The notes below the pieces were generated by a model. The model saw nothing but the letters and a program-made list of their open reading frames with translations. It was not told the origin of the DNA and did not search any database. From an uncultured virus (IMG/VR IMGVR_UViG_3300013382_000010) (taxonomy: Duplodnaviria > Heunggongvirae > Uroviricota > Caudoviricetes), in the IMG/VR virus record IMGVR_UViG_3300013382_000010: a DNA stretch of 64,000 nt. One strand, given 5' to 3'. This document shows, in pieces, positions 2,875 through 63,523 of this stretch (positions are counted from its first letter, which is position 1; each line of letters opens with the position of its first letter). The translations under genes were made by a program, and so were the position numbers.

Positions 2875-2884
2875 GTAAGATAAT

Positions 2885-2936: not shown

Positions 2937-2955
2937 CAATATGAATTAATGATTT

Positions 2956-33400: not shown

Positions 33401-36400
33401 TACTTCTGCTCAAAACCCTGCTCCTGCCCCTACACCAAAACCAAGTAATCCTAAAGAATATGTTACTTCTATGGCTAATTATAAGGATAAATATGGAGTA
33501 GATTGGAAAGTTCTTTTAGATGGATTGGCCGAATATACAGCTGAAAAAGCAGCAAATGGGCATATTATCATTTCTTTCCCTAGTCCGATGTAGGTTTAGT
33601 GGGGAGTTATGATTGGTTCTTTAAATGGATTAGACATAGATCCCGTATCTAAAGAAACAACTGCTATAGGATTACGACATCCTAAAGATGATAAACCTTA
33701 TATTCCTTAGGATTCTGATTTTGATGCATTTTTAGCTCAATAGGTATAGAATTTAGGTATTCAACCTACTACTTAGCCAACTCCAGAACCAGAACCAACT
33801 CCAGAACCAGAACCATAGTCACAGCCGTAGCCCGCACCGCAACCTTCTTCTAAACCAAAAAAGAAACGGCCTATAACTTCTAAAGTAGAATGGAGTGAAT
33901 TAGACCCAAATGCTTATACTGTAGATACATCTTCAGAAGATACTAAAATTACATTTAACAATAGTGTAAAAATTTCTAAAGCATGGTCAAACTAGTATAT
34001 TAATGGAGGCAATTATTCAAAATTGTATAGTATTTCTATAACTCCAAGTAACTTAGTTAAAGCGACCTTTACAAAAGGCTCCAAATATACTACTAAATAT
34101 ACAGATGCTACTCTTGGCGATATTTCTAGTTTGGAACCTGAATTACAATCTTTTATAAATAATATATTAAATTCTAAACAATATCCTGCAGAATAGGGAC
34201 TATCTGATGATGATGCTCAAAAGCAGGAATTGCATAAAGCTGATTCTGAAGACAATAATATCTAGGAAATAATTGATTAGGCAGAAAATTAGTCAGTATC
34301 CGGAAATAACAGTGCTGTTCGAGATTTCTTCTTCATGGATTCTAGTAAAACTTTTGAAGTTGGTTGGGTTAAAGATAATTCTGGAATTTATAAACCATCT
34401 TCTTCAAATGAGAAGACGTATAATAGAATTGATGGATTCAATGGATTATTTAATGCTAATGGTACTTGGAAGAGTGTATATAAATTTAATGATAAAGGAA
34501 ATGATACTCTACAAAAGAGACAAGAAAAGGCTATTAAATTAATAGGACAGCTACGCCAATTCGCCTTTAATATCAATAATAAGTAGCAGTTAGTTAAGGT
34601 AATAGCTGACGCTCTTAAATTAGAAAAGAGTAATCCTTATGTTACATTTGCTATAAAATCTGGAGATGTGGTTTCTGTCGATGGAGACAGTAATGGACAT
34701 CATATAGCTCAGAAAAGCAACTTTAACAAATTCGATAAGGATTCTGAGGAAAAAACTCTATACAGCAATAATTCCGAAAAAGTATATAATCGTAACTTAG
34801 TTATGATTATAGGTAATGGTGGATAGGATGTATTAGAAATTCCATTACTTAAATTAAATTCTCCTCAAACTAAAATACAGAGTTTGGGCGATAATTTTAA
34901 GGAATTGTATATCAATACTTTAAACGCCTGTAATGGAGATGAGCGACAGGCTTTAATCAAAATAGCAGCAAATCCTCTTATAAGAGACCATTAGGATATA
35001 GTAGACTGGATTAAGATATATACTAATACCAACAATGTTAGGACTATATATTATTAGAATGATCCTGACTGGACATTAGGAAAATTCTCCAATCTTGGGC
35101 CTCAGTATAATGCTGACAGAGGACTAGGTTTTTATGATGCTAACTAGAGTTTACAACAAACTAGAGATTTAACACCTTTAGAATCTATACAACGCCCTGA
35201 TATAATAGTATCTGACGTACTTTCTTATATTAGTAATAGAGGTAAAACAGATGATGGTGTAACTTTAGTATCAAATCCTGGACACTTATTTGTATTATAT
35301 TCTTCAAATCCTAACTACAATACTACAGAAAAACTTGTAAATAGGTATGTACAATGGAAAACTTAGAAAGCAAAAGGTGAACCTTATATTCCAGATGTTC
35401 ATATTAAATATATATCTACTCCTAAAGTATCTATCGACAACTATTTGGACAGCATTGTTAATATTACTATTAAAGGGTAGAAAGGAGTACCTATTTTAGG
35501 TAATGACAAAACTTCTTACCTAGTATTGAAGAGTATTTTCTTAGACAAAGGAGGTAATCCAATAAATGATGCCGGAATTAAAAATTTAATTGAAAAAGGT
35601 TGGGGAACTAAGGCTGCAGATAGTGTATATAATTTCCTTCTTACTAAAATATAGGAACTAAACACACTTCCCCTACCGCAGTTAATGAAGCGACTAAATT
35701 AGGTTGAAGACTGGAGTAAACCGAACCTAAATTAGGTTGAAGACTAGAGTAAACCGAACGGACTTCCCGGAGGATTTGGTTATTCTGGAAAGAGTTTATC
35801 AACTTAGTTTATGTCAGTAATAAGACAGTTAATTGCTCCAGTAACAATAAAGGAAGATAGCTAGGGTAATTTCACAACAAAACCTGAAGTCAATACTGAT
35901 TGTAGAGAATTATTTGTTAACTTATTTGATAAATCAAAGCAACAGCTTTACTTCCAATCTAGACTTTAGAATTCACAAACTGCCAATGTAGGAAATACCT
36001 TATTTAAGAGAGTACAAACTGATCCTAATAATAGGTTTAGAATTAAATATGATGGAGGTATATAGAATTTAAAAACATAGTTTAATATATATGGAGATTT
36101 AGGTTCTAATGCATTTATTACAGACGATTCTTTTGGGGACTGGTTACATACTATTGCTGGTAGAATCGAACGGAGTAAGAAGGGAATAGAAAGTGATTTT
36201 GGAATATATATGGACGGACATTCTAATATTGCAAATTCCAAAAATACTGCTACACCTTCTTGGAATAGTTATTCTTAGAGTATATTGAATGTCTTAGACA
36301 GCAGCTTTAAAAAAGGAATTGTTCCAGATTCACCTAATAGTTCTCTCACTGATGCTTAGATTTGGTCTATTAAAGAGGAGTTACGTAAAGGTAATAAAGA

Positions 36401-37115
36401 TCTACTAATATTTACAAGTGGTAATAAAGCTACTCCTATAGTATTTGATACTGGAGGTCTCAATTTGTAGTTTATTTAGAATGGAGAACCTACTTATAGA
36501 CTACCTATAACTAGTAATGATTCAAACTTCGATGCTATAGATGGTATTACTAAAAAACACTATACAGTATATTTTAATTCAAGTACTGGTGAAATACGTA
36601 TAGTAGATCCTTCAAGCATTCAGAAAAAACCTGCTCCACAAACTACTCAGTAGAAACCTTCTTAGAAGAAATCTACTAAGGAATAGAAGCCGTAGCAGCA
36701 ACCTACTCAAGAATTCAACAAAGAATTTTTATTAAACGATAATACTTTATCGGCATATAAATTATTATTAGAGAATGTATTAGGTAATGTCGGAGGAAAA
36801 GTCAGAAGTTTTAAAGAATTTGTTAGTTCAGCTTCAAATAAGAGTGATATATCTGAATGGAATACTTGGTTATAGGACAAAGGAGGTATAAGAGCACTTT
36901 AGAGGTTTATTATAAATACTTTAACAGTTGCTAAAACCACTAATCCTGGATTAATTACTGAAGAAGATAAAACTACTAAATATAACTTGGATAATGTGTC
37001 TCTTGAAGGCGACTACAAGGAAAAAGATAAATCTTTAGCTAAACAAATTCTTTCAAGTATATTGGAATATGAGAACAAAAATATATCTTGTTCAATCGGA
37101 ACTGTTAAACATTAA
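27408..37115 (+). CDS. Giant virion-module protein with an SF1 helicase-like P-loop domain (~3235 aa)
   Basis: Fragments 27432, 28761, 29109, 29910, 32175, 32574, 33318 and 34335 share one frame. Motifs: LVEGQAGAGKSS (~32007-32042), VIFIDEIG, AGDLHQ, SAQGSE, YTSITRAQ. Confidence 0.78.
30430..30477 (+). repeat. 18-bp tandem repeat (GEEPLF), about 2.7 copies
   Basis: TTGGGGAAGAACCTTTAT TTGGGGAGGAACCTTTAT TTGGGGAAGAAC. Confidence 0.9.
35694..35759 (+). repeat. 33-bp tandem duplication
   Basis: CTAAATTAGGTTGAAGACT(G/A)GAGTAAACCGAAC twice, one mismatch. Confidence 0.95.
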
Positions 37116-37120
37116 GTAAT

Positions 37121-40100
37121 ATGAATATATGTAAATATTCACGTGATTCATTCCAAGAGGATTTCGAGAATAATCTCGAACCTCTTTGGAGTGATTCTCT
37201 TGTAATTAAAGATGCTGCCGGCAATGAGGTAGCCATAACAGATAATATAAGAAGAAATTATATAAATAGATTGATAGATTATTTAGGAGGTTCTTACAAT
37301 ATTAAAGGTAATTTTTCAGATGCAGTAGAAGCTATACAAGAATCTATGGAGAATTACCTCGATGAACCTCTCCAACTGCCTGAAGAAGATATAGAAGCAG
37401 CTTTAAATCGTCACAGCATTACTTCGAGAGACTAGTTAAATGAAGATAGTTCTTCAACTAAATTGGAAAAAGATGATGAAAGAACTGCTTATAAAAATTC
37501 ATTCAAGAATATTTATCTAACTAAATATTTTGGAAAATGTATTCCTGCATAGAATTACTGTACAAAACAGGCAATTAAAGCTATTGTAGACAGTTGTATT
37601 ATTTCTCCAGAATATGATGATTCTGGAAATATTATAGCCAGACATATAGTAGTCGATGACAAATAGTTAAATAGAAATATCAGAAATATTTAGGAACAGT
37701 TATATCAAAACATACTTAAATATTTAAGAACTAGATTTTCTAAGAATATTGAAAAGGTAAACAGTTTACCTCAATCCTTATATTCTCAAGATTAGTCTGT
37801 ATATACTGGAGGATTTGAGAGATTGAATGAAGAATTTGGAGATGTACTAAATCCAGATTCTTTTAACAGTTCTTATTTGGACAATTTGTTTGTAACCTAT
37901 AGTACAGCAGTTGGCCTTAGTAAATAGATTACTAAAACTGAAATAGATGGATATACCTCATGGGTAATGTTAACTAACTTTGATTCAGTACTTAGAGGAA
38001 ATTTGGGAAGTTCTATATTTATAAATAGTACATTACCTGCTTTTAACCCAGAATCTGCTACAGGAAATCTTGATAGAGTTAAATATTCTCTCACCAAGGC
38101 TAAAGCTTCAAACATGAATAAATCATGGAGAACTTCTGAGGATATAGATGTTTCTGACGAGATTAGTAACGTAGTACAAGTATTGATAAATAATATTCCA
38201 TTTAAAGGAAGTGATAGAAATATTAGGTTTAATGAATTTGGATATATTATAGGAAAATTAAAAGACTTATCTTATCATATAAATCCCACTGCTAATTAGG
38301 TAGAATTTAATGATGATTTATATGTGAAAGATATATTAAATGGTGAATATATTAAAATATCTGACAGAACTAGGAATCTAGTTGAAGGTGACACTTTCTT
38401 TAAAATATTAAATAGTATATAGACTTCTGCACAAGAGTATATTCCAGCAATATTTGAAATATTAAGCAATGACGACTTACGAGGAAAATTAAAAGAATTG
38501 ATTCAGGCAGATTACCAACTATCAGACTTTGATGTAAATCTAATTAAGTCACTTTATGATGGATTGTTTAATCCTGATAGTAAAACCTCATTACTATATG
38601 CTAATGATGTAAGTGGTTACGATGCATAGAATTATATGGGTTATATTACTCAGGCTTGTGATGGAATTTCAAATGCTAGATATATTCAATATTTTAGAGA
38701 CAGTGATGGAAATATTTATGCCCGAAATTTATATGACCAAACACTTGATGGTATCCAATCAGATATTGAAAATAATATATTAATATCTAATTCTAGAGAT
38801 ATTAAGCCTTTTGATTTTGAACATTTCCACGAATTTTCGGTTGAAACTAAAAAAGATGAAGATGGCAATGAATCGATAGTTTCTATAAGATTTAGAATTA
38901 ATGGTAACAAAGAGTATATAGTATATCCTAATAATAATAATGAAATAGTTACTAATGATGGAGTACGAACCTCTTTAGACAAAGCTGACTTTGATGATGT
39001 AAAGAATATCGTACAGGAAGTATTACATTAGAATTTTGACACTAACGATGAATATTATAAATCATTATTAATAGCATATAATTAGCAGGAAGGAACAGCT
39101 TTATAGGACTTGCTTACTCTTTCCGGAAATGCTGTATTAAATCTTTATATATCAAATAAACTATTAATAGATTCTGATAAGAATCCAATTTATAATACTA
39201 GAGAGATACATGATGTTTTAAAGAATATATATGGAGAAATATCTAGAGGTAAACTTACCTCAAAAGCACCTAAGTATAATAAAAGTTTAGGTTAGATATA
39301 TCTAACTTCTCAATACGACTATCCAATACTAAGTAAGTTAGCTTTAGCTAAAGCATTATATACTGGTAGAATAACCTCTTCACAAGTACGAGATGGTAGT
39401 GGTAATGCACTTCCAAGCACTTCACTATCCCGTCTTTTAGGAAATATTCTACAACAATATTACACTAAAGGACTTGCTGTGGATTCTGTTGTGAATAATG
39501 TAGCTCTATTCAAACCAGGAGTTTTACAAGGAGTATTTTAGGCTAAAGAGTTTAATAATAAATAGTAGAATACTTCTACAGCTCATACAGAATTTAATGC
39601 TGCTGAAATAGAATAGTCATAGTTATTTTATGATTTCTTACTAGGATTACAACCCAAAATAAATAGTAGAACTCCTATAGGTGATGGTAAAATAGGTATA
39701 TTACCTTCAGTCAATTCGGATAAATCTAATATAGGGAGAATTATTGTAGATTTAAATAGAATACTTATAAATGGTTAGTCCCTATATAAATGTTTGGTAG
39801 ACACCTTTGGTAATGTACGTGAAAATGCTGAGGAAGTATTAGATTAGTTTATCTATGATGAACTGGGAAACAATAATGGTGTATATACAAAAATTATTGC
39901 AAATATCAATGCAAAATGGGATAAAACCTAGTAGGCTATAAATGAATATCTTACTCAATTTAATAGTCCTTATAGTAATATTGCTGGAGAACGTACAGGC
40001 AGTATTATGGATAAATTGAATTAGGTTTATATTAAAAGTGACCGTACTATACAGAAACCCGCTGCTTTTCTTAATGATGTTACTCGTTGGTGGAATAATA

Positions 40101-43100
40101 AACATCCTAATGATATTATAGAATTGACCGAACATTCTACTTATGAGGTAGATAAATCTTCTGGAATATTATTACAAAATATTCTGTTAAATACTATGAA
40201 AAGCAGATTGAGCAGCACTACTTCAATACATTCCTTCTTTAACCGGTAGAATGGAAAACTTTTAAGAGATTTATTAAAAGATAACTTTGATGGCGGTGGG
40301 AAAATATATATAGGACTTGTCGATTTATCAAGTGGTAACAAAATAGTGGTACATAATATAAATGATTTATATTTAAATCTCAATAAAATTAATACTGCTT
40401 TTAAGTCTACTCTAACTACATCTTCATCTTTAGATGACATATTGAATACTTTAGGAGGCAATATTACATTAAATCCTCTTATAAGTATATATAATAAATT
40501 GAATTATATATTCTCTTAGGAATGGATGATTTCTAATGTAGGTGGGCATTTCAACCACCCTGCTAAAGCTTCTATAGATACAACTTTATTTAGAACTGTT
40601 CCTCTTTCTGCATCAGAGTTGTCGGAGTTGGACAATCTTACGAAGGTTAATAAATAGAATAATATTCGACTGGCATAGTTATATAGACAGTATGGATATG
40701 ATGATAATGCTTTTAAAGAAGCGGTTATAGATAAAGTACGTAAAGTAAATTCTAAATTTGGAAATACTAGAAAAGCCTTTGGAGAAGATGCTGTTAATAA
40801 ATTCTTATAGAAAAGGCATGATGCAGAAATTTTGGATGAAGCTGGTAGATTTAATTCTCAGACAAAACGTAATGTATCATACACTGCTGCTATGCATCCT
40901 TACCAACTTAAAAGTTTACAAGGAACACCAGATGTTGCTAATGTTGTAGTTATGAAACAGCCCTCCACAAAAGTATATACAGTAAATGGTGACTATACCG
41001 ATGCGTATGTATCAGATGGTGGTATGTTCATAAATCCTTGGATGGCTTATTGGGAAAATGGTGCGCTAGGTTCTGAAAAAGTAGGTATAAATAAGAAATA
41101 GTATATACATTTCTACAAACAGGATACTGGTACTGGCGGTATGGTAAAAACCGCCGGATATGCTATGACTAATGAGCTTATGAGGCTGTCTCCATGGTAG
41201 CGAAGAATGACTAGAATGATGGCAGATAGAGCTTGGAGAGATGAACAGGGTAATACAATATTTTTAGATGTAACTAAAGATTATAATAATAATAAAATTC
41301 TGTTACAAAATAATAATGATATTCAAGGTTCTTTCTTTATTAAAGTTGGAGATGATTATTACAAATTCTTACAATTAAACTATAAAGGGAAGGGACGTTA
41401 TACTAGAACTCTTTAGAAAATAGATCTAGAAACTCTAACTGGTAAAGAAACTAAAGAATATGATTTAGAAGGCAAGGTAGTTACTGACACAAATGCCGGA
41501 ACAGTAATTGATTCTAATTACAAGTTATGGCAAATGCTTGGAGGATATGAATGTTACGAACAGAAATCTGGAATGAATAGACTAACTCATTCTGAATATA
41601 GTATTAAAGCAGTTGCTGATATTGCTAATAGAGTTGGTATAAAAAAAGTTCCTGAGGGAACTACTGTACGCACACAATCTGATTTATATCAGGTTATGAA
41701 ACATTCGGATTTTCATTACGTCTGTGACGAAGGTAGTGTAAAACATGGAGAAGCAGGAGTTGAAGACCTTACACCATATCTAAACGGAAGTAAGCCTATA
41801 GAAGACTTCAAGCCTAACTTTATGCATGTTCCTATGGAACAATCTGGTATTCAGTTGGATAAGGAGCATAATGCTGACTAGGAATCTTTATCTATATTTA
41901 CTTAGGTTATTAGTGCTTGTGCGGCTAGAGGATATACAGCAGATAAAGCTCAGAACTTATATAAATCTTTAGCAGCTTTAGCTTATAATGCTACAAAAGA
42001 ATATCAAGAAGTTTTTGATTAGTTCTTGGAAAATCCCAATGTGTATAGAGATAGCTTTTAGGAAACTATTGCAAATCTATGTGCTAAAGCCTTAATGAAT
42101 GAAAAGAATACTTCTGATGTATTGAATTATGTTGTAAGCAATCTTATTAATTTAGCTAAACAAGGAGAAAGATTTAAATTTAAGGACAGTATTCCATTCA
42201 GCGATAATTCTATATATAATAAATTAATATCTACTATAGGCTCTACACTCACTAAATCAGCTATTAAAGTTAAATTGCCTGGACTGTTAGCAGTGTTGTG
42301 TCCAAGTAGTGGAATTGTTAAACTTTATGGAGATAGGTTGCTTAGTTCTTATAAGCCTGGAGAATTAGAAGCTCTACAAGTAGAAAAGAATAATAACCCT
42401 AATTGGACTATTACTGATGGGACGATTACTCCTACACAGTTATCTAGAACATATACTCTTACTGTAAATCCCGGACATGAAGAAAGCATTAGTAATGTTT
42501 TAGGTATTACTCCTACTTCTAATACTATAGACTTTACTTTATATACTCCAGTTGAAAGAGAAAAACTGAAATAGTTAATTGCTCAAGGAGATATAACTAG
42601 TATTGTAGAAAATGTAATGGTGGGTAGGGATTTATCTGCTTATGATGTTTTCTTTAAAGGTACAGATGCTGATGGAAATACTTAGCAATATTCTTTATAC
42701 GATTGTGATGTAATTAAATAGAGATTTGCAGATAAAGAATCTGTAAGTGATGAAAATTTGCAATATTTATTAAATGTGTTATCTCCTTCATCCTAGGCAT
42801 ACGATGTTGGAGATAATGCTGTTACAATAAATGGGCATGATATTACAATAGATAGAAGTTCCATACAAGTTAAACCTTATGAATTAGTAATACCTAAAGT
42901 ATTTGCTACCAACTTTGGATTAGATTTTGATACTGATTTACACGCAATATTGCAAGATCCACAATACTTTACTAAAAGATTAGCATCTAAGATAGCGGAT
43001 ACTATTGATGATTCTTATTATAGTGTAGCATTTACAAGTCTTGGAGGAGATCCTGTATATGTATTAGATAGAAATAAAGCCAAATCCTCTGATAATTTTA

Positions 43101-43735
43101 AAAGAATAGATGTAAACACTGCAGTAGATAAGGACGGTAATGTAGACATACTAGATGACAACTTTAATAAAGTATTAACACTATCTAAAAATTAGAACGA
43201 TATTGAATAGGATCCAGATTTACATTAGGATGAAGTATGGCAATACGTTGATGGCTAGGGCCTTACACATAATGTAATAGTTACTGATGATTTAGCTTAT
43301 TATGCTAATAATACTAAATGTAATGGAATTAAAGTTGGAGAAAAGAATTATGATGATTCTACTGAAGATTTATTAAAGAATTCCAAAAATAAAACTGTAT
43401 AGAATTGGTATTGGACTATTGCTAAGAGTGGAAGTATTACAGCAAAGAGTACATTTAAAGACAGTGTACGTGCTTTTAATGCCTTGCTTCATAATGTTAC
43501 AAAAGAAGGATATACCAGTAATAACTTACGTAATAGTTCTATAATAAGCAATCTTGCAGATTAGGGAACAGAAATCTGGGAATCTTTCAAGAAATCATTA
43601 GATGTTGTTGCTGCTCGTATTCCTGCTCAATCACTACAGTCAGTAATGGCAATGAAAGTAGCAGGATTTATTGATAGTGACGTTAATACAGCATATGTAA
43701 GTACCTTGCAGACTTATTTATAGGGTTCCGACTAT
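37121..43735 (+). CDS. Virion-packaged DNA-dependent RNA polymerase (two-barrel type), exon 1
   Basis: All supplied fragments from 37121 to 42950 share one frame; contains SDGG, GIQLDKEH and AARIPAQSLQS, and ends in LQGSDY. Splicing completes GSDY|DID, the catalytic DxDxD motif. About 3274 aa in total. Confidence 0.88.
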
Positions 43736-44783
43736 AAATAAATATTGTAGTCTTTAAATTTCGTGAACTGCGGGAAATTCCTTAGAGCTTATTTATACTA
43801 AAATATATTAGAAATAATTATATTGGTCATAATTAACTGTTATGAGTATAGTAAAAAGTAAATAAGATTGGACAATCCGCAACTAAGTACCTTAATTTAA
43901 ATTGAATTTATTAATGTGCTAATGCTATTTAAAATATAAATTTAATTATAAAAAGGTAAAAGCTCATCGACTATCCCTTTATGGGAGTAGCTGGAAGCAT
44001 TTTACTTTAAAAAATAAATAATAGTAACAAATAAATTATAAAGTAAAATGGTTAAAAAAATTTCTAAAAAACTTAGTAAAGCACAAAAACAATTACTTAT
44101 TGCATTAGTAATTGGAGATGGTACTATAACTAACCATCCTGATTATAAAATTGCACATAGTAGTAAACAATTATTTTATATAAAATGGAAAATAGCTCTT
44201 TTGGATAAATATAATATACAACATGGAGGCTTAAAATTATACGAAAGTAAAGCTGGTTTTAATAAAGGACAGATGGTTCCGACAGTAAGATTAAAAACAA
44301 ATATGACTATTAAGGCCCTGCGTAGAAGTATCTATACCCCAAAGAAAACTATTACAAGACGTTTATTAAATTGGCTAAATCCATTAGGTATAGCAATTTG
44401 GTATATGGATGATGGGTTTATAAATATAAATAATTCCGTACAAAGGTCTTCTGTGTAGCATACAATAAAAATATCTACTTATGTAGACCTACCTACCTGT
44501 ACTACTATTATAAAATATTTTAAAGATATTTGGAATATAAATTTTAGACCATTTAAAGAAAAGTCTAAATGGTTTTCGATAGCTACCGCTACAGAAAATG
44601 ATTGTAAAAATTTTATTTCTGTAATAAAACCATATATTATTCCTGAATTTTTATATAAAATAAGAACTAATTTTACTAAAGAAAAATTTATAGAATATCA
44701 ACAAAGTTGTCCGGCGAAGTGCGAAACATTCTAACAAGAATGATGATATAGTCAGTTTTGTATTGAAAGATACAATGTAAACG
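43736..44783 (+). mobile_element. Group I intron in the RNA polymerase catalytic motif
   Basis: P1: exon GACUAU pairs with intron GUAGUC; AAUAUU can pair with 3' exon GAUAUU (P10). Core: GAACTGCGGGAA (~43766), AATCCGCAACTAAG (~43874), GCTCATCGACTA (~43962), TGATATAGTC (~44744); terminal G44783. Confidence 0.92.
44048..44734 (+). CDS. Intron-encoded LAGLIDADG homing endonuclease (228 aa)
   Basis: Two motifs, LLIALVIGDG and IAIWYMDDG; one TAG at 44456 read through to TAA 44732-44734. Confidence 0.9.
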
Positions 44784-47700
44784 GATATTGACGCTGTATC
44801 ATTAGCTATGTATGCTTTCGATAAACAAGGAAAGTTTGTATAGTGGTCTCCTTACTTTAATCTAAGTAGTGCAGATACTTTACAAGCTTCTTTGCAATTA
44901 CCTTTCCCTACGGGAAAGATTTTAACTTCTACAGATGTAAGATTTGATTAGAGAAATCCAAATAATATTATGTACTATATTAGTACCTCTAATAATCCAG
45001 ATGATTCTAAACCTTTTGTATTATATAGAGGATAGGATGGAAGTCCTAAAATAAAATATAATTTAGATAATCCTACTAATATATTAACATTGGCCGGATT
45101 CCTAGATTATATAAATAACTATGGATTTGTCTTTAATAGTGGTGGCTTGTCAGAAAAAACATATGGACAAGTTGCGGATTTATTGCTTCCTATAATTAAT
45201 AACCATAATAATTATATAAATACAGTTAGAGATAGCCGTACTAAAGAAGATATGATAAAAAATAGTATATAGTAGGCGATCTTTGATATTGTATTGGATC
45301 CTAAAAACTAGCGTGAAGCACAAACCTCTGTAGATACTGCTACTAAATTAGCCAAAAGTGTTGCTAATGGTAAGATAGAAGATATAGCATCTCCAGAAAA
45401 TGAGGAATCTATAAGAAATACTCCGGGAGCATTCACTACTAATATTTATGGATTTACTTCAAATCAAGTAGGTAAAAAAGCAATTGGTATTGCTGCAGCT
45501 ACTGGATTAAAAGCCTATTTTACATTAACACAATACTGTAATAATCTTCTTAAACAGGGGAATGAGAATGCTTTAAAAAGACTTAGATTTGATGTAGAAA
45601 TTGGAGGTGAGGAATATCATACACTCTCTAACATATATACAGATAAACCAAATTCTTTTGCAGAAGAATTAATAAATCTTGCTAAAAATGACTAGGATTT
45701 TGCTCTACAAATATCTGTAATGGAATCTCTTTCTACCGATAATGCTAAAGAGCTTTGTCTGTCTAAGTTAAATTGTACTACAGATACTATGGGATTGTGG
45801 CTATATGGATTAGCTATAGGTATGGATTTTAAAGATATTGCTAAAATTATGATGTCTCCAACAGCCTTCTCATTAGCTAATACTATGAGAGGTAATGTAT
45901 TTAATGGAGATACTGCTGTATCTATTAATAGGTTAGGTAGCTATGTTAATGACGGCCCATAGAGTTCTACAGCTCAGAAAATTATTAAGAAAATTATTGG
46001 CGTAAAATACGATTTTTCAAAACCTTTATACGAAAATTTTAAAAATCATCTTGGTACTCAAGAGGACAGTGAAGATACTGATACTGAAATACTAAATCTA
46101 CTTCAAGCTGATTTAAATAGTGTATCTGCTTCAGATGGTAAGGGAATTACTCATTAGGAATATTTGGATTATGCAAAAGGTGTAGATGAAATAGTGTAGT
46201 GGTTGCGGTTGTATAGAGAAGTAAATAACAATCATAGGGTATATGAAGATTTTATGCAGTTAGCTAAAGGAGCTTCTGAAATGTTACAATTAAGTCAAAT
46301 ATTACATCTAAATCAGGGACTATTTAATTCTGATACAGATATTTTAGCTTTTATAGATAAATTCTCAAACCTCATAAATGATAGAAGGTATCAAAATAAT
46401 CCCAAAGAGATTATTCCTAAAGAATCCAAAGTTACAATAGATTTACATCAATTTGTAACTAATCCTAAATATAGAAATGATATTATTAACGCCTATGAAG
46501 ATGTAAAAGTCTCTTTCAATATATTAGATGTATTGGCTAATATGCCTACATATTTCCAATATTTAAAGACATTGGATTTGCAGCACGCTATGAACTATAA
46601 TATTTCTAGTAAATATAGAGCAATGACCGATATTGGCAAGAGAGCTGTGAATTATGTAGGAGCACATAGTGCTAAAGATGTTCAAAAGGTATATAAAAGA
46701 GTATCTAACTATATAGATATTTACACTGCTGCTAAATGGATGCTTGAATCTGATTATAATCCTGCCTAGTATGGTGATCATGGTATTAATATATACTTAC
46801 CTATAGGAGCATATTATTATATTCAAGATGTATCGAATAATAATATTATTACAAAGCGTAGAGTGACAAAAGGAGAACGTGAAGATATTTTTGGAGAGAA
46901 ACATATAGTTAACTCTTTGCACGGTATGCCAGTAAATTTAGGTACTGCTAATGGTAGAGCTTCTTTTAAACATTGGATGGAATCTACTGTAATACCTAAT
47001 TTACAAAAAGGTAGAAATGGTAAAAGAGGAGCTAATAATAAATATATTACAAACCCCAATTCTCCATTAAGATCTAATCTATTTATATAGAGATTAGGAG
47101 TAAATCAATTCACTAAAACTCCTATGGGAAATCCTATATTAGGATATGCTTTGGATATTAATATGTCTCCAAGAACTGACCATGAAATTGAACTTTTATA
47201 TCTATATAAACAACAATTTAATAAGTTAAAAACTTATGGAGAATATAGTAAATATTATACAGGTACACATAGTTACGATTTAACAGAATTATTCTTCCTA
47301 TATAATTTATGTACTTATCAAAATAAACTTGGTGAAAATACTCTGACAACGATATTTTAGGATAGTAGGGATTGGGGAATTATAGGAGACTATTATAAAT
47401 ATATCAATACAATGGATCGTTCTAGAGACGTTATAGCTCCAGAAATTTCTGACATTGTTCAATATATAGCTCCTATAGCCAATAAATACAGTACTAAATT
47501 AAAAAACTTCCTAAGTGTTGATTCTATAACAGGAGATGTTGTTGTGATGACTAGAAAAACCAAGGCGGATATTGAAGTAGAGTAGGAATATACTGATCCA
47601 AATGCTAAAATAGATCCATTTAGGGTAACACCTTTAACTAGAGATGTAAATTATCCTACTTTGGAATCCTTGAATAAAGTAATAAATATTCCAATACTTG

Positions 47701-47993
47701 ATAAATCCGAAGACTCCGATGTTAAACTTAAGAATATTCCTAAGAGTAATTAGTCGTATGAGGATGAATCAGGTAACGTGATTGATATACGTAATATAAA
47801 GATAGAACATACTAACGGAAGTATTCTTAAGATTTTTGTTAATGATAAATAGGTAAAAATACCAAATGAATATTTGAAGTATTTTACCCATATCCCAACA
47901 AAGCTATAGTATTTTGGAAAATTGCCAAAAGCGGTAAATGATTATGGAACATTAGTCGATGATATAGTAACATTAATATCAAGAGTATGTTAA
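44784..47993 (+). CDS. Virion RNA polymerase, exon 2
   Basis: Begins DIDAVSL; includes VGKKAIGIAA and STDNAKEL; fragments 45090 to 47124 are in frame; ends ...ISRVC at TAA. Confidence 0.88.
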
Positions 47994-49081
47994 ATTGTAT
48001 TAACCCTGAGTTAAATCAGAAAGTTCATGACTTACAAAAAAAGTCTGGACTTTCTGATTTTCCATTACGCAGTTAGATAAGACATTATCTTACAAATCAT
48101 AATGGTAGATTACCTGAATTAGATGAATTAAAAGGAGCTAATTCTGAGCCTTACTTATACAAGGATTTAAATCTGCCTAAAGGAGGAAGTGCTGATATAA
48201 AAACTTTGCTTGAAAAAACAGGTGCTCAAACTTTCTCAGATGCTATTATTAGTCTAAATAATACTTATAGAGATTTAGAAATTGAAGGTCATGAGTTAAA
48301 TAATGACACATATTACCTAAAAGTTAGACATAGGCCAACAGTAGATAGTAGTATGTTAGGAGTATTTGATGATGCTCAAGTATCTCCAAATGTGAATGTT
48401 GTAGATGACCATACATTAATTGTACAAACTGTAAATAAATTGGCAAGTTTATATGGAATAACTATACATAGAGTAAAAGAGGATAAATTACCGCAAGGTT
48501 CTAAGAAAGGAACTGTTAGAGGATATATTTAGAATGGGGAAGTATATATTGTAGAAGGTAATAATGGAGTAGATACCAAATTACATGAAATGATGCACTT
48601 AATATTGGGCAGTGTAAAATTTCAGAACCCATCTTTATATTATAATTTAGTTGCTATGGCTCCTCAATTTTCTGGTTTTAAAGAATGGGCCAGAAACTAC
48701 GTAAGTACATATGGAAAAGATACCTTAAATGATTTATCTGAAGAATTTATGGTAAGCAAAATTGCCAACTATTTAAGCGGTTAGAGTAACGATACTCAAT
48801 TAGCCTCTATGATTAATAATAATCCAGAAATGTGGTATTAGACTATGTACCATATGAATAGATTACTAGATTCAGTGTTTATGGGAGGGGCTTCTGTTAA
48901 AGCAATTCCTGCCAGTAATCTATATAACTATACGTTTAGGCAAGTGGCTAATATGGTTAATTCTGCAGTAATGTAGAATAAATATTATGGCAGTCTAGAT
49001 GATGCTTAGACACACCGTATAGAAATGAATCTTAAAAAGCACTATATGCAAAATGATAGATTGCTAATGAAATGTGAATAA
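47987..49081 (+). CDS. Zincin-like metallopeptidase-domain protein (364 aa)
   Basis: VRGYIQNGEVYI...LHEMMH (48581-48598) plus a downstream LSEEF candidate third ligand. Confidence 0.8.
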
Positions 49082-49092
49082 ATATTTTAAAT

Positions 49093-52000
49093 ATGTTAAC
49101 TTGTAAATATACTTTATTAGATAAAGACAAATAGTCTATAATTGGAGAATTTGACACAGAGGCACAATTAGACGACTTTTTAATAAAATAGGATGAATGT
49201 AATAATAATAATCAGAATATATCAGATATAGTATTTTCTAGAAGTGCTCCAAATTTGAAAGCTCAACAAATTCTTGAAGAATAGGCAGTTATCTCTAAAG
49301 AACTTGAAGAGAAAAGATTGTTATGGAGTAAAGCTATAAAAAATGCTGTAGATGATGATTCTGAAATTATCCTTATGGCAGATCCTCCATATATTGGTGT
49401 TACTAAATTCTTAGATGGTAGAAGAAATAATGAGGGAGATCTACTTACTCCTGAATTTATTAGTGAGAATTATTGGGGGAATAGAAAATCCCATTGGACA
49501 TCATAGATTCCTGCAGGTTAGAGTATTAAAGATATGTTTAATGCTCAAGAAATTAAACTTCTAGCCGACGGAAATACTGACGAAGAGAGATATTAGAATT
49601 TCTTACAGAGTAGAACGTCTAATGGAACATATCAACCCCTAACTCAGCAGGAAGCAGATAATTTTTAGAAGACTATTTTAAAGAAATGGGCATTTATAAA
49701 TACAAGAGGTACTGCTATACACTTTGTAATGTAGCAATATTTCAGTCCGTTAATAGGTGCTGACGGTAAACCACTTACTAAAAATGGTAGAGTTTTTAGA
49801 GTGTTTGACTTGACAAATTCTCCACAAACTTTAAGTGGCGTCAATTTTCCATCTATTACTGATTATATAAATCGGAAAATTAGTACTGATTTGAAATCTT
49901 AGATGGGCAGAAAATTTAGTCCGGATCTAATTACTCCAGAATTACTTTAGAATGCTCTAAATTTTGCAGAACAGTTCCACGAGCATATTAAAAAAGTGTT
50001 AGGACAAACTGAAGATTTGGATTTTTTCCCTGAGTTCAAAATAACTGGAGATTTACATACTACTCAAGGCCCTCCAAAATTGATGGGTATTATCGACTTA
50101 TTGGTATTGGATAATAAAGGAGTAGCTCATATTTTCGACTATAAATGTTCTGATAAGAAATACTCCGATTTTAGTGAGGCGAAGAAAAGAGGATTCTATT
50201 ATCAGCAGGCTATATATAACAGACTGTTAAATCAACATGGCCTAAATACCTATAACAACAATATTAGAATTGTGCCTATTGCTTTAGATAATTTTAGAGG
50301 TGAGAATATAGAATACACTTTATCGGATCCAGATAAAGTTGACTTTACTTTTGACAATAAGCTCTATTATCCACCTCAGATGTCTGTAAATATCAGACCT
50401 GATATTACTTCTGTAAACTCTAAAGGTGAATCTAGAATACTTGATAATATAGATGAGTTTTTACCAGAATCTACTGTTACTAATATAGCCTCTGATAAAG
50501 CTGTAGAATTTGTAACCACCATGATGGGTAGATTCTTTCCCGACTATTCTGGAGGTAAAGAGATAAATGAAGATCTTATTGAGCAGGAAATAAAAGATGC
50601 TGGAGGTTTTGAAAGAGATTCTGAAGGTAAATATTCTTTTGAAGTATCTGCATATAAGAAATTATCTTTTGACGATCCTAAGAAACTGTTAGATGCGGTT
50701 ATAAAAGAGAGAAAGTATCAATAGTTACGTAAATCTCAGTTAGCTTCAACTACAATATCTGCTTTAGAGTATGCCCAAAAGAATAACACCAAAGATATAC
50801 AAGATATTATTAAAAATATTGATACTAGATTCATTTAGGATAAGAATGCTTATCAGGGATGGTTTAGAAATTATCTGTAGAAATATTGTAATTCTGATTG
50901 GCAAATATTGTCTAGTGAGAGTGCCAGATTCTTTGGATTAATATTACTTAGAAATACTGTTAATAATTAGATAGATGTTATTAAATTGTCTGCATCTAGC
51001 CTTAAACGTATTAGAAATATAGATAAAAGTAATAAGAATGTAAATATCGACAGAGCTTTTGAAGACGATATTACTGAAAATCAGAATACTAATTCTAGAA
51101 TATTACAAGATGCTGAAGGTAATAGAGAATTAATTGAAACTATGTTATTCTTAAATACCGTACCGGCATTATTTAGTGGTGCTTATAATAATGGAGTGGT
51201 TGGTAATATAGAAGTAATAAATCCATTTAGAGGTGAAGGTATAGCTGCTTCTAATGAAGAGCTACTTTATTCTTTAAATAAACTATCTCAACACGCTGAG
51301 TGGACTGAAGCTAATAATATTGCTAATGGTAATATAAAGTTTGGAAGTAAGTGGTAGCTATTTAGAAACGAACTTCAAACCGCTTTAAATAATAGTATTG
51401 GATTTTAGCTTTCTAACACTGAATATTTCCAACAGGCTTAGAATGATATACAGACTACTGTTACTGGAGATAACAATAAAGATGCGAAAATTAATATATT
51501 GCTTAGAGTAATTAAAGGTCTCGAAGATGCTTATAATATTAATCAGCTTTCAGCCAACTAGTTGAACAGTGAAACTAATTTATCTCCAGCATATAGACTG
51601 TATTATGATTCTCTAATTACTTTGGGAGAATTGAGAGGTCTTAATTTCAGACAGCAATTAAAAGAATCTGCTAAATGGATTGAGAATGGATTGAGTAACA
51701 TATTAGCTAATGGTATTGGTGGTATTTATGTTGATAACCCTGGTAACTTAATTTCTGAAACTCTTAACAGTATTACAAAACTACATACTCAAGCTCTTCA
51801 AAATAATAGATAGGATATGGTTGGCCCTACAGCTAAAATCAGGGATCTAACTGAAAGACTTAAAAAAGAGAAGAACTTTGGATATATTACATCATTAGTA
51901 TAGAATGATATTGATTTATATAAAAATATGTATGAGACTACAGCTAATGGTGATCTAAGATTTGTAAATGTAAATAAGTTATCAGGAGTTGAAAAAGAAT

Positions 52001-54186
52001 ATTTGCAATATGCTTTACGATTGATAAACAGAGATAGGTATCCTAATTATACAGAAGCATCTTTAGATTCTATGGAATAGAATGATGATATTGATTATTA
52101 TAGAGTTCCATTATGTAGAGCAGAATCTAGAGCTAATTAGAGAGATGCGGGATTGAAAGAAAAACGTAACCCTGATACTGGTGAAATGGAATCTTATTCC
52201 AGTAGTTTATGGCAATCTTTTGTAGATACTTTAAAAGCATTTTCCTTTAAGAATGCCTTTAAGGAAATGTAGGAGAAGATTAATGGAATATTTACAGAAG
52301 ACGATACTGCTTACAATAATGCTGCCAAACTGTTTGATTTAACTACATCGTTTGATAGAAATGAGCCAAATGCTTCTGGAAACTTATAGGATAGATTGGA
52401 TAATATAGCTACTAAAGGTACAGGATATTTTGAATAGAATCTTGAAACTCTTACATTAAAACATGTATTTGCCTATTCTACTAAAAAGAGAATTAATGAA
52501 ATTATGCCTACAGTAAAAGCCGGTATGGCATTTCTTATTAATATGGGAAATACTCAGAACACTAATTTTACTAATGACTTGGAATATTATGAAAACTATA
52601 TTAGAAATAAGATAAAAGGCCAGCCTTTGGAAAATGACCCTATATTAGGTAACTCTAAAGGAGCGTAGGGGGTTAAAGCTACCGCTGCTAAAATAAGAAG
52701 TGCAGCAAGTTTCTTAGCTTTAGGTTTGAATCCAATTCAGTGGTTTTATCAGAGATTGTAGGGTATATGGACTGATATAGCTTTAATTATCCGTAAACCT
52801 GATGGAAATCCTGCATTTACTTTTAAAAACATGGTAGATGCATATAAGACTGTAAATAAGGACTTATTCCACTATTCCGATAAACCTACTAAATGTCAAC
52901 TTATTAATGAATTGTATGGAATAAATGATATGGATATGAATCAGTATGCAGATAAATTACGTACTGATAAACATGGATTATTCCATATAAATGAACTTGC
53001 TTTTAAATTTACTTCTAGGCCTGACTTCTATAACAGAATGACTATTATATTAGCGTAGATGAAAGAGTAGGGAGTATGGGATGCTTTAGAGGTAAAGGAT
53101 AACAAGCTAGTATATAATTGGAAGAAAGATAAAAGATTTAGTGCTTATGCTAATAATGAAACTTCTAATCCAGACTATATTAAATAGAAGAGTTTATATT
53201 TAGCAATAGCTTAGCAATTTGTAGCTGAAGGTGTATAGAACCCTGATGGGTCTTTATTTGAAATAGGACAACCTCTACCATACGCCTACACCAATAGAGA
53301 AATGGAATCTATGAAATCTTTATGTGATACAATCTATGGATATTATTCACATGAAAAGAAATCTATGATACATTCTACTTTCTTGGGAAGTTTGTTTATG
53401 CAAATGAGAACCTATTGGTCAGGTAAGAAAAATCAGTATATGTTAAAAGGCGGTGTAAGATTAAGAGGCCATTGGGAACAATTAAAAGATTCTGATGGAA
53501 ATCTACTATATTATCAGACTGATGCCGATGGTAATTTAGATAGAGATGTTCCTCCAGTACCTAAAGAACAAGTTAAAAACTAGTAGATGTTAATACCATT
53601 TACTTAGTGGAAAGGTCAGTGGGAAGAAGGAATTGTGCAAACTTTTGCAAATACTTTAAGAGCTTTACATAGAGATGATGCCGTAGATTGGTATAATCCT
53701 TATACTTGGGTATACGGATATAATAAATATCTAGATACTCTAGATCCTTCTATGAGAGCTACTTACAGACAAAATTTAAGATAGCTATGGGTAGATTTAA
53801 TAGGAACTCTGTTATTAGGCTCTCTTATAGGAGGTATTTTATCAGAAAAAGATAAAGATCTTATTAAAGAAGCTAAAGATAGTGGAGACCTTACAGATGC
53901 CATGCTTGCTTCTATATCACATATAGGTGTACGGTCTTGGGTAAATTCTGCAGCTGATTTTAATGCTTTAAATAATGTAATTAGCCCAGCTTTGGATTGG
54001 AAACCTTATTGTTTTCAATCTATAGGTAACTTAGCCCAAAGAACTTTTAATACTTTTACAGGTGATTAGTCTGCTTATAACAATATTATAAATTCATTCT
54101 CAGCAACTAAAGCCATTCAACCAGTATTTACTTATATTGCTCCAGATGGTGGGTATATATTCCCACAAGACGAAGATCAACAATAA
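49093..54186 (+). CDS. Large virion-module protein with a PD-(D/E)XK nuclease domain (~1697 aa)
   Basis: RGTAIH...PEF...GIIDLLV...IFDYKCS...YYQQAIY. Fragments 49318 to 53302 are in frame; ends at TAA before the terminator. Confidence 0.8.
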
Positions 54187-54298: not shown

Positions 54299-54982
54299 TT
54301 AAATATCCATTACTAATGGACTATATTTATAGTCATATTTATTATCTACAATACTTACGCAAGCTGTATTTATTCCATCATAATTGACTATATTATGATT
54401 ACAGCTATGCAGATGCCCAAAGAAATGATATTTAGGCGCAATACCTTCTACTCTCCTTTTATCTAATATTTCTTTTAATTCTCGATTTCCCAAATGTTCT
54501 TTGTCCCCCAATAATACATCACTTTCTCTATAAGCAGCATCGTGAGTAAGTAATATGTCACAATTCTTAGACATCTTATTAAAATCTCCTAACTCTTTTT
54601 CAGGACTATACATAAATGCCCAATTTCCAAATATATGACAGTCTGGAGAACCAAATATTACATATGTTTTACCTTCTGAATTTGTATATTCAGCAGATTC
54701 ATTACATAAATATGTAATATTAGTACCACTAAGTATATTCTTTAATTTTTTGGCACTATTTTCAAAATATATGTCATGATTTCCTCCTACAAGATATATA
54801 TTCTTTACATCAATATCTTTACACCAAGGTATAAAATATTCTCTTACCCAATTAAATACTTTTTCATAATTAAATTGTATTTCTAGTGGAACTATATCCC
54901 CACATATAAATAAGCAATCTAAATTTGTATATTCTATAGGAATCAAATTTCCATGTAAATCACTTAATGCACATATCTTCAT
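54299..54982 (-). CDS. Calcineurin-like metallophosphoesterase
   Basis: SDLHG, CGD, GNHD, LLTH and FGHLH motifs. Confidence 0.92.
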   Translation of the reverse strand: MKICALSDLHGNLIPIEYTNLDCLFICGDIVPLEIQFNYEKVFNWVREYFIPWCKDIDVKNIYLVGGNHDIYFENSAKKLKNILSGTNITYLCNESAEYTNSEGKTYVIFGSPDCHIFGNWAFMYSPEKELGDFNKMSKNCDILLTHDAAYRESDVLLGDKEHLGNRELKEILDKRRVEGIAPKYHFFGHLHSCNHNIVNYDGINTACVSIVDNKYDYKYSPLVMDI

Positions 54983-55034
54983 ATACTATATATTACATAG
55001 TTTTTATCAGTATCAACAAAGAGAGCTGAATCTT

Positions 55035-55256
55035 TTAATCTTTCAACAGCTTTGACTTATATTCTAAATATTTAGTTAAGAAATTAATAGCATCTAGCTC
55101 ACCTCTAGTTAAAGAAATAACTCTTTCGCCAATTGTAATATCCCAACCCTCTCCATTAGTCCATTCAGTAACTTCGATAATTTTATCTTCATCATTACAA
55201 AGGTAGTCATAAATCTTTAAATTATCGTAAACAGATTTTCTATTCTTTATTTCCAT
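55035..55256 (-). CDS. Hypothetical protein
   Basis: 73-aa ORF within the operon; IEVTEWTNGEGWDI. Confidence 0.75.
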   Translation of the reverse strand: MEIKNRKSVYDNLKIYDYLCNDEDKIIEVTEWTNGEGWDITIGERVISLTRGELDAINFLTKYLEYKSKLLKD

Positions 55257-55261
55257 AATTT

Positions 55262-56341
55262 TTAAAATCCTAATTTAGAAGATTTTTTTGCAGAGAAGTC
55301 ATTGTCTTCAGTATTATAAATTTCAGCTAATGTCATAGGCTTATTAAATTCTGGACGAAGTTTGTGTACCTTATCTGCAGTGAGTTTATTAAATATATAC
55401 TTTAATTTTAATCTACCTTTACGAAGTAATGCTTTATCAATATTAGATTCATCTGTATTATAAGTACATATAAATTTGAGATTTAAAGCATCTCCTAAAA
55501 TACCATCACTCAGATTAAGTAATGCAGATATAGCTGAGTTACCCCCTAAATCTCTACTCTTAAGAAGAGTATCACAGTCTTCCAATACTAATACTGAATT
55601 AGCTCCTTTCTTTATTAAGAATGTCATAAATGCCGTAGAATCTATATTCATTAAAGTATCAGCCGTAAGTAATATAAATTGCTGTTTACAATCATGGATG
55701 AGCTTCTTGATTATAGTCGTCTTACCGGTTCCACATGGGCCACTAAACAACATTAGTCCAGAAGATTCACTATCACAAAACTCTACCATCTTATCATAAG
55801 GTAGATCGTCATTATAATTATCGAGAGATATATTTAGATTATGTTTTACAGTTAATACCGTACTGTCAAACAATCCTTTAGTATTCTGAGTAATATAAGT
55901 AAATTCAGCATCTTTATTATTACTATCCTCAATAGGCTTTATAAAAGATTCTAGAATAGTGGGCTTGGTAGCAGAATATACAATTAACTCTTTAGAGTAT
56001 TCACTAATGTAATATACTAATACAAGGACTTCTTTATAAATATAAAGAATTGCATCACTACCATTAGCACTTATAAAAGTCCTACTAAATTCTGCATTCT
56101 TGTTCAATTCTTTAATAAAGAAATTTAAATCGATAAACTTATAATCAGTTAGAGATTTAATAAATAATCTCTCTACGAAAGAATCTATTTCTATTTTACC
56201 GTCTTTATCTATAAACAAACTCCATACTTGATATGGCTTTCCGAACATTAATTGATAAAGATAATCATATTTATCGTCTAAGCACCAATCTTTCAAAATG
56301 GAGGTTATAGCCCCTTCGTATTTAGTTATATTACTTTCCAT
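55262..56341 (-). CDS. AAA+ ATPase
   Basis: GPCGTGKT, LVLEDCD, LLNLSDG, TYN and IDKALLRKGRL (second region of homology). Confidence 0.92.
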   Translation of the reverse strand: MESNITKYEGAITSILKDWCLDDKYDYLYQLMFGKPYQVWSLFIDKDGKIEIDSFVERLFIKSLTDYKFIDLNFFIKELNKNAEFSRTFISANGSDAILYIYKEVLVLVYYISEYSKELIVYSATKPTILESFIKPIEDSNNKDAEFTYITQNTKGLFDSTVLTVKHNLNISLDNYNDDLPYDKMVEFCDSESSGLMLFSGPCGTGKTTIIKKLIHDCKQQFILLTADTLMNIDSTAFMTFLIKKGANSVLVLEDCDTLLKSRDLGGNSAISALLNLSDGILGDALNLKFICTYNTDESNIDKALLRKGRLKLKYIFNKLTADKVHKLRPEFNKPMTLAEIYNTEDNDFSAKKSSKLGF

Positions 56342-56573
56342 TAGTCAATTCAATTTCTTTATTTAAATACCATGCAGCTTTCTTCAAATCTTCTGTACCA
56401 TTTTTATAATGACTTCTCCATAAATATTTAAAAGCATTTAGGTGACAAAATGTTTTAACATTATCATCTCCGAAAGCTGCTTTCATAGCATCTATACATT
56501 CTATCCCACCTTGATTGTAATGAGTGGGATGGTTCACATTGTCAGTTGTTTTTTCAGTTGCTTTTGCTACCAT
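56331..56573 (-). CDS. DUF3310 protein (T7 gp1.7-like nucleotide kinase family)
   Basis: DNVNHPTHYNQGGIECID...NAFKYLWR..KNGTEDLKKAAWYL. Confidence 0.9.
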   Translation of the reverse strand: MVAKATEKTTDNVNHPTHYNQGGIECIDAMKAAFGDDNVKTFCHLNAFKYLWRSHYKNGTEDLKKAAWYLNKEIELTNGK

Positions 56574-56836: not shown

Positions 56837-56848
56837 TCTTAAAATATA

Positions 56849-57241: not shown

Positions 57242-57244
57242 AAT

Positions 57245-60057: not shown

Positions 60058-60078
60058 AATTTTAATGGTATTGAAAGT

Positions 60079-61580: not shown

Positions 61581-61596
61581 ATATATAAAATTTAAG

Positions 61597-62371: not shown

Positions 62372-62375
62372 AATT

Positions 62376-63398: not shown

Positions 63399-63417
63399 AA
63401 TTATTGATGGATAAAAA

Positions 63418-63511: not shown

Positions 63512-63523
63512 CTTATAAATTAT

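Follow-up and report, generated by a model that had tools for sequence, protein, structure and literature searches.

Proteins that are stored in the capsid and expelled ahead of or with the DNA are known from phages T7 (gp14/15/16), P22 and N4 (the virion RNA polymerase vRNAP and two ejection proteins). A giant RNA polymerase is likewise part of the N4 virion (PMC13434306; PMC10172136). No covalent head-to-tail link has been described in these ejectosomes; the words disulfide, cysteine and covalent do not occur in the N4 paper (PMC13434306). The closest described system is that of cyanophage A4 (Anabaena phage A-4L), for which cryo-electron microscopy reports a disulfide between gp27 Cys1715 and gp26 Cys5 in the pre-ejectosome (PNAS 2025, PMC12002296). 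In the A-4L record, gp27 (1717 amino acids, aa) has a single cysteine at position −3 (ending ..NPCQF) and gp26 (1114 aa) a single one at position 5 (MSKHC). Here we analyzed a window of 64,000 nucleotides, the whole stretch of the uncultured virus IMGVR_UViG_3300013382_000010 (Caudoviricetes) under study. Four virion-module proteins encoded in it, a helicase-like giant, an RNA polymerase, an HExxH (zincin-like) protein and a PD-(D/E)XK nuclease giant, carry a cysteine near each end that faces a neighbor. We consider it probable, at roughly two chances in three, that these four proteins are ejected cargo joined head to tail by disulfides into a chain that reduction would take apart.

Related blocks of giant proteins are known from crassviruses. 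In virions of crAss001, gp47, gp49 and gp50 were identified by mass spectrometry, and inter-subunit disulfides were found in the tail and the portal vertex; its authors expect partial unfolding of the cargo during passage through the tail, with the order determined by how the proteins are packed and interact with each other (PMC10172136). Virions of phi14:2 contain gp65-67 according to mass spectrometry (Drobysheva preprint). The blocks of phi14:2, crAss001 and DAC15 resemble that of the window in their giant virion-packed proteins, DxDxD polymerase and zincin-bearing protein and in the same placement of terminal cysteines, but they have three members, not four, and another domain order; in phi14:2, the polymerase takes the middle place and the last protein includes the zincin as a fused part. 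Fused polyprotein forms (Drobysheva preprint; crAss002 gp33, Suoliviridae giants of 4.3–4.9 thousand residues) hold the same modules in one molecule. They differ from the window by a peptide bond, which reduction does not open, in place of the proposed disulfide; the joint has no cysteine.

Cyanophage A4 and the window are alike in that a C-terminal cysteine of the upstream product faces a cysteine near the start of the downstream one (Cys5 in A4), both A4 products being capsid-packed ejection proteins; the A4 motifs ..NPC.. and MSK.C recur at crassvirus junctions. The A4 system differs by its single link between two proteins, its pentameric ring and T7-like character, and no RNA polymerase, helicase or nuclease takes part in it. 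For the window, three links in a row are proposed, and the conservation of the cysteine rule extends over another order of phages. Because BLASTP of A4 gp26-gp29 against the proteins of the window, phi14:2, crAss001 and cr1_1 gave best E-values of only 0.35–0.98, A4 is treated as an analogue and not as a demonstrated homologue. The original prediction knew of no description of such a system. This stands for Crassvirales in the texts searched: no description of terminal cysteines or cargo disulfides was found by literature searches or in the texts of PMC10172136, the Drobysheva preprint and PMC7886860, a search that did not cover the extended-data disulfide and mass-spectrometry tables of the crAss001 atlas. 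It does not stand for A4, whose single link is in print (PNAS 2025). Judging from sequences, what appears new is a multi-link chain that includes the virion polymerase and is conserved across the order; what was known is the single A4 link (2025).

Terminal cysteines in the window and its relatives

The members of the proposed chain, in gene order, are the following:

27408-37115, + strand, chain member 1, helicase-like giant (3235 aa with TAG read as glutamine, 3 Cys)
37121..43735, + strand, chain member 2, RNA polymerase, exon 1 (open reading frame, ORF, 37121-43741, 2206 aa, 13 Cys)
44784..47993, + strand, chain member 2, RNA polymerase, exon 2 (ORF 44808-47993, 1061 aa, 5 Cys)
47987-49081, + strand, chain member 3, HExxH (zincin-like) protein (364 aa, 2 Cys)
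49093-54186, + strand, chain member 4, PD-(D/E)XK nuclease giant (1697 aa, 8 Cys)

The helicase-like giant starts with MIQQKEND, without an N-terminal cysteine, and ends with NISCSIGTVKH, which places a cysteine at −8 (codon 37089-37091). The polymerase starts with MNICKY (Cys4, codon 37130-37132) and ends with ISRVC, the last residue being cysteine (codon 47988-47990). The HExxH protein starts with MLNC and ends with ..LMKCE; its sole cysteines are Cys4 (47996-47998) and Cys363 (49073-49075). The nuclease giant starts with MLTCKY (Cys4, codon 49102-49104) and ends with ...PQDEDQQ, with no cysteine near its C-terminus. The original prediction had placed six junction-facing cysteines at exactly these ends and none at the outer ends (MIQQKEND..., ...PQDEDQQ); both statements were confirmed in the window, the first only with TAG read as a sense codon. 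Its account of the polymerase needs one correction: there are two ORFs, 37121-43741 and 44808-47993, with an intron-like insert between them.

Relatives were collected by a profile scan of viral contigs, and the best 80 of 146 loci were dereplicated to 31 clusters (HExxH protein less than 70% identical). Counts were made on raw first-ATG ORF calls, with residues 2–6 taken as N-terminal and the last 4 as C-terminal. Across the 31 relatives, 122 of 124 junction-facing termini had a cysteine: the C-terminus of the polymerase-side upstream protein in 31/31 clusters, the N-terminus and the C-terminus of the HExxH protein in 30/31 each, and the N-terminus of the nuclease in 31/31. A cysteine within the last 10 residues of the nuclease was present in 1/31 clusters. 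The first of the two misses has a GTG start and reads MDNC. The second is an HExxH protein with an in-frame stop (TAA, in the standard-code relative L009, ~10490), past which the frame runs on to the usual end ..EEFCS; the gene could be broken, misassembled or locally read through.

Among 126 other ORFs of the same loci, used as a control, cysteine occurred in residues 2–6 of 10 and in the last 4 residues of 6. Thus, the comparison of terminal cysteines with their background, which the original prediction had named as a check, came out in its favor (122/124 against 10/126 and 6/126). At these control rates, the probability of the six window termini is roughly 1e-7 by our arithmetic. The interior of the chain proteins of the 31 relatives was depleted of cysteine (0.36%, 518/143,303, versus 1.64% in the 126 control ORFs), as would be expected if stray thiols were harmful; a frequency of 0.36% predicts ~1.8% for a five-residue window.

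Alignments gave the same picture. In the last 200 residues of the polymerase (alignment A3, 27 sequences, mean column identity of 16%), the terminal cysteine was the sole invariant column, and Cys4 was one of 2 invariant columns of the N-terminal polymerase alignment (A2). Of 11 raw calls of the polymerase start, 10 read M-x(1-3)-C, and the remaining one has an extra upstream ATG ahead of MIKC. In the HExxH protein, C4, C363, H200, E201 and H204 were invariant in 24 homologs with identity down to 34%; C4 of the nuclease was likewise invariant (alignment A4, 24 sequences). Orthologues of the helicase-like giant from all five further lineages (5/5) start with M..KEND.L.N, have their first cysteine past residue 336 and carry a cysteine at −8 or −9. 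This cysteine, followed by a strand-like tail, was found in helicase giants of 7 loci and in 5 fetched giants, three being common to both sets.

The spacing of the genes at the junctions ranges from −10 to +88 nucleotides (nt), the position of the cysteine varies (−1 to −3 at the C-terminal end, 3 to 5 at the N-terminal end), and both codons are used at the junction termini (TGT 109, TGC 13). Selection therefore acts on the protein and not on the DNA. The same data bear on the idea that the pattern arose by chance, or as a by-product of start/stop overlap or of a DNA motif at the junction. An overlap does exist in the window, where the last cysteine codon of the polymerase overlaps the next ATG (GTATGTTAA), and an overlap of −7 was found in 5/31 clusters. 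However, chance would give ~2% of termini, and the controls gave 5–8%, against the 122/124 observed, while neither overlap nor a DNA motif fits the range of spacing, the use of both codons and the location of a partner gene on the other strand. Both the overlap artefact and chance are refuted by the spacing range, codon usage and control rates, and we regard this explanation as practically dismissed.

Topology of the proposed chain and possible nature of the link

The helicase-like giant has no N-terminal cysteine in 6/6 lineages, window included, and the nuclease has none at its C-terminus; therefore, the set has one free N-end and one free C-end. The count of N-terminal cysteines matched that of C-terminal ones throughout the lineages seen: 1:1 for Suoliviridae, 2:2 for phi14:2, crAss001, DAC15, IAS virus and cr116_1, and 3:3 in the window, with one extra pair in loci of the L063 type. 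Each lineage has exactly one protein with a C-terminal cysteine only and exactly one with an N-terminal cysteine only.

Ten named crassvirus records were examined, and all obey the terminal-cysteine rule, three of them after re-reading of the annotation:

phi14:2: gp67, 1797 aa, 1 Cys (last residue); gp66, polymerase, 2180 aa, Cys 3 and 2179; gp65, 1421 aa, Cys 3
crAss001: gp47, 2341 aa, 1 Cys at −3, opposite strand; gp50, Cys5, Cys1334 and Cys at −9; gp49, 1349 aa, 1 Cys at 5
DAC15, IAS virus, cr116_1: layout as in crAss001 (DAC15 order 61-63-62)
Four Suoliviridae records: two-member chains, a giant of 4.3–4.9 thousand residues with Cys at −2 to −4, followed by a protein whose Cys is at 3–5

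The cleanest case is phi14:2, in which gp67-gp66-gp65 have 4 cysteines in 5,398 residues, all terminal. The first member lacked an N-terminal cysteine in all 8 records in which it was in view (the giant N-termini of cr118_1 and cr50_1 lie outside the stretch examined), and the last member lacked a C-terminal one in 10/10.

The cysteines covary with the ends of proteins. In L063 and L071-73, an extra 333-aa protein follows the polymerase and precedes the HExxH protein; its cysteines number exactly 2 (position 6 and −2), and its neighbors keep theirs. In L075-80, the HExxH domain is part of a 1352–1394-aa fusion, again with exactly 2 cysteines (residue 3 and the last residue). The cr1_1 gp076 is a fusion of a gp47-like part with the polymerase, as indicated by a BLASTP homology map, and its sole cysteines are at 4026 and 4548 of 4551, with none at the joint; likewise, the fusion crAss002 gp33 has no cysteine from 2140 to 3119. 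Intron breaks have no facing cysteine pair. The upstream intron read-through of cr116_1 (CDS, coding sequence, 24128) ends in a cysteine by coincidence, with no facing partner. As read from these sequences, the rule tracks true protein ends, not domains or DNA. It is also independent of gene adjacency, the first member being on the opposite strand in crAss001, DAC15, IAS virus and cr116_1. Thus, of the linear chain in gene order that had originally been proposed, the head-to-tail topology has strong comparative evidence on its side, while strict adjacency of the genes had to be given up.

The simplest reading of these facts is that the C-terminal thiol of each protein is paired with the N-terminal one of its successor, because N- and C-terminal cysteines are equal in number with one C-only and one N-only member, and because pairs are gained with inserts, are absent at fusions and stand among few other cysteines. 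The terminal cysteines might instead pair homotypically (N with N, C with C) or with the portal or inner capsid. Sequence alone cannot say which thiols pair, and crAss001 uses disulfides between other virion proteins (PMC10172136). This arrangement gives no reason for the equal N- and C-terminal counts and leaves the single C-only and N-only proteins of each lineage and the loss at fusions unexplained; moreover, the pairing reported for A4 is heterotypic, from C-terminus to N-terminus. We regard it as unlikely.

Regulation of the enzymes by the cysteines, either as a cysteine switch on the HExxH zinc or as marks of N-terminal processing or lipidation, is more improbable still. Cysteine-switch latency is known in matrix metalloproteases, and the sole two cysteines of the HExxH protein lie on tails that are flexible in its predicted model and might reach the active site. 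The same terminal cysteines are, however, found on the three members that lack an HExxH motif (helicase-like giant, polymerase and nuclease), and phi14:2 gp65, annotated as zincin-bearing, has an N-terminal cysteine only. No signal peptide precedes the cysteines at positions 3–5, and for this reason a lipoprotein lipobox was rejected.

In the favored reading, a disulfide chain, the four proteins would be made separately and then tied head to tail, each link connecting the C-terminal cysteine of one member with that at position 3–5 of its successor. The order would be helicase-like giant, RNA polymerase, HExxH protein and nuclease giant, ~8,560 residues in total. The most likely bond would be an intermolecular disulfide, formed after docking of the ends and packing into the capsid. 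Such a tether would fix a one-to-one stoichiometry, and one member would carry the others into the particle; at infection, every member would pull its successor along through the narrow tail, and the reducing host cytoplasm would release the enzymes. Disulfide chemistry is plausible by analogy with A4 and in view of the depletion of interior cysteine, whereas ordered threading and cytoplasmic release are steps that we infer.

The ends might also dock as proposed while their cysteines coordinate one metal ion between them or belong to a docking motif that works without a covalent bond. The topology and covariation fit this equally, an acidic residue often stands before the C-terminal cysteine (..KEYC, ..EECE, ..KQECK, ..KECLE), and such a contact would work in an anoxic habitat and in reducing cytoplasm. 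On the other hand, one cysteine per end gives two thiols per junction, which is a poor metal site with no other invariant ligand near the termini, thiol chemistry explains the interior depletion better, and the solved A4 junction is a disulfide. We hold this to be a minor possibility, though the most serious of the competing explanations.

Several facts weigh against the disulfide chain. No disulfide or other link between chain proteins has been seen in any crassvirus. The cytoplasm in which these proteins are synthesized is reducing, and the anoxic gut is home to most of these phages; therefore, both an oxidant and a time of bond formation must be postulated. In the crAss001 atlas, the cargo is not resolved, and the text searched mentions no cargo disulfide or cysteine (PMC10172136); the disulfides of purified crAss001 virions could have formed in air. 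In the helicase giants, the cysteine is located at −8 or −9, before a strand-like tail, versus −1 to −3 elsewhere, and the helicase/polymerase junction may work differently from the others. The chain proteins of the window still hold 25 interior cysteines, and BLASTP of A4 gp26/gp27 against the crassvirus chain proteins revealed no similarity (best E=0.39). Three of the named records fit with reservations: crAss002 gp33 only if Met33 (MSC..), which is probably its true start, is taken as such (L083 8163-8262); cr116_1 CDS 24128/24130 only as two exons (GSDFD|VD) of one polymerase; and in IAS virus, the gp055/gp056 break lies in an N-rich (ambiguous-base) stretch. Finally, the nuclease of the L035 cluster (9 loci) has an unpaired cysteine at −9 (ending in ILKCINQSLQED, L035 ~15760-15798), which may be an extra link or a coincidence.

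Proteins of the proposed chain, the intron-like polymerase insert and the genetic code

The helicase label comes from a borderline match to Pfam AAA_30 (27.1 bits at a cut-off of 27, E=4e-6, residues 1530-1688) and does not imply helicase activity. AAA_30 also matches the orthologous giants of genomes G001, G002 and G003, above the cut-off in G001 and G002. The N-terminal motif M..KEND.L.N of the helicase giant (window 27408-27470; L086-L090) is kept in 6/6 lineages despite strong divergence and is a candidate for the leading end of the chain or for its docking signal. A similarly borderline match, to Pfam PDDEXK_1 (23.2 bits at a cut-off of 22, E=7.6e-5), was obtained with the nuclease giant; its alignment keeps the core consensus ..G.IDLLV.D..G.....DYK.

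The putative RNA polymerase is named after a DxDxD catalytic motif common with crAss001 gp50 and phi14:2 gp66. In the window, this motif is divided between the end of exon 1 (..GSDY) and the start of exon 2 (DIDAVSL); all nine continuous polymerase homologs read GSD.D[IV]D, and crAss001 gp50 and phi14:2 gp66 read GSDFD[VI]DK. DFDTD at residue 1935 was rejected as the catalytic motif. A profile of the nine homologs did not reach phi14:2 gp66, crAss001 gp50 or cr1_1 gp076 at E<=1.

The HExxH protein is zincin-like by its motif, and its fold gives this weak support. The AlphaFold2 (AF2) model had a mean predicted local distance difference test score (pLDDT) of 75, with residues 1-4 below 50 and the last block at 54. 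These low-confidence tails of the model are compatible with exposed tethers and say nothing about partners. A Foldseek search of the model against the PDB gave nothing at E<=1e-3. VIA-align of residues ~140-300 of the model gave PprI (Z of 5.3, root-mean-square deviation, rmsd, of 3.0, 86 aligned) and PPEP-2 (Z of 5.0, rmsd of 3.9, 124 aligned); both of these top rows are HExxH peptidases, and values of Z < 8 are not decisive by the tool's own note. By tblastn against the named phages, the HExxH protein found 3 weak records. A single-protein scan of viral contigs found only one close relative.

The polymerase gene is interrupted by an insert:

43736..44783, + strand, group I intron-like insert, approximate boundaries, with a LAGLIDADG homing endonuclease ORF at 44048-44734

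The endonuclease ORF matched Pfam LAGLIDADG_2 with E=1.8e-20. On a polymerase profile built from the nine continuous homologs (2997–3312 aa), ORF 1 covers positions 1-2071 and ORF 2 positions 2080-3066. The break is inside the catalytic motif: the homologs read ..LQGSD.D[IV]D.VSL.., and the window reads ..LQGSDY, then DIDAVSL. A relative with flanks 99.5% identical (L001) is without window bases 44054-44705; thus, it misses a 652-nt endonuclease segment and keeps the intron. Its remaining insert (~400 nt, L001 6376-6792) gave a full-model match to Rfam Intron_gpI at 28.5 bits (E=2.3e-5), below the gathering score of 50. The Rfam scan of window 43000-45500 gave no match, and no sequencing run was listed for 43300-45200. 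The internal ends of the two polymerase ORFs are free of cysteine, as would be expected if these are not termini of a protein. In cr116_1, which belongs to another family, an endonuclease-like CDS lies between polymerase exons 24128 and 24130 (L097 8043-18908); this second endonuclease-bearing insert (L097 15567-16406) is one residue further along (GSDFD|VD). Both inserts are in the DxDxD motif, so this site has been hit repeatedly.

Upstream of the chain, two proteins without cysteine were encoded:

20429-25540, + strand, upstream protein of 1703 aa, 0 Cys
25537-27411, + strand, upstream protein of 624 aa, 0 Cys

The larger one (1703 aa) carries long Pro-Gln/Ala-Pro linker runs. Orthologues of the 624-aa protein (~600–630 aa) have 0 or 1 cysteine in 5 relatives. 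Both proteins are possibly further ejected cargo outside the chain, kept thiol-free. That the chain proteins of the window are packed in the capsid and ejected is a view that we infer from their position in the late, TAG-recoded virion module.

Under translation table 11, the longest ORF of the 30–54 kb region in a scan of the window does not exceed 242 aa. Recoding of TAG as glutamine opens twenty long + strand frames, giants included; recoding of TGA as tryptophan opens none of these. The − strand genes past 54.3 kb are intact without recoding. In-frame TAG codons were found in 20/20 long + strand (late, virion) ORFs of window 1-54186, up to 83 per gene, and in 0 of the − strand ORFs of window 54299-64000; therefore, recoding is apparently limited to one transcription direction. 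A tRNA search of the window found 0 tRNA genes, and thus no suppressor tRNA. Reassignment of TAG to glutamine has already been described for crAss-like phages (PMC7886860).

Searches with window proteins gave few assignments: none of 7 was assigned a PHROGs family, Pfam matched neither the two parts of the polymerase nor the HExxH protein nor the two upstream proteins without cysteine, and BLASTP of ten window proteins against crAss001 gp44-gp50 gave no match at E<=1e-3. At the other end of the + strand region, the ORFs at window 328-1278 and 1693-2790 form a paralogous pair with near-identical N-termini (ME.[ED]L.YIVY...N...K.YIGVH), which we take to resemble the GIY-YIG endonuclease motif.

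Meaning for crassviruses and other short-tailed phages

No viruses of the human gut are more abundant than crassviruses, and roughly a megadalton of their cargo, including the polymerase that starts the infection, has to travel along a narrow tail. A conserved tether would be open to a cheap test in three cultured phages (phi14:2, crAss001, DAC15); for A4, the A4 paper (PMC12002296) reports a CRISPR editing method. As an annotation rule, a facing pair of cysteines marks true protein boundaries; it flags intron breaks (window 43741/44808; cr116_1 24128/24130) and the doubtful start of crAss002 gp33.

The chain of the window would be the split counterpart of the fused polyprotein, re-joined after translation. 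Taken further, this gives the picture of a "post-translational polyprotein", for which we see the balance as even: the ejected enzymes of crassviruses, polymerase included, would be strung by disulfides into one thread of 5,000–8,500 residues that sets stoichiometry, packaging and delivery order and dissolves in the cytoplasm. Fusions and disulfides would interchange freely, and the cysteine rule would mark true protein ends. The shared solution would link crassviruses with cyanophage A4 via its gp27-gp26 bond, and the A4 device may then be widespread in short-tailed phages.

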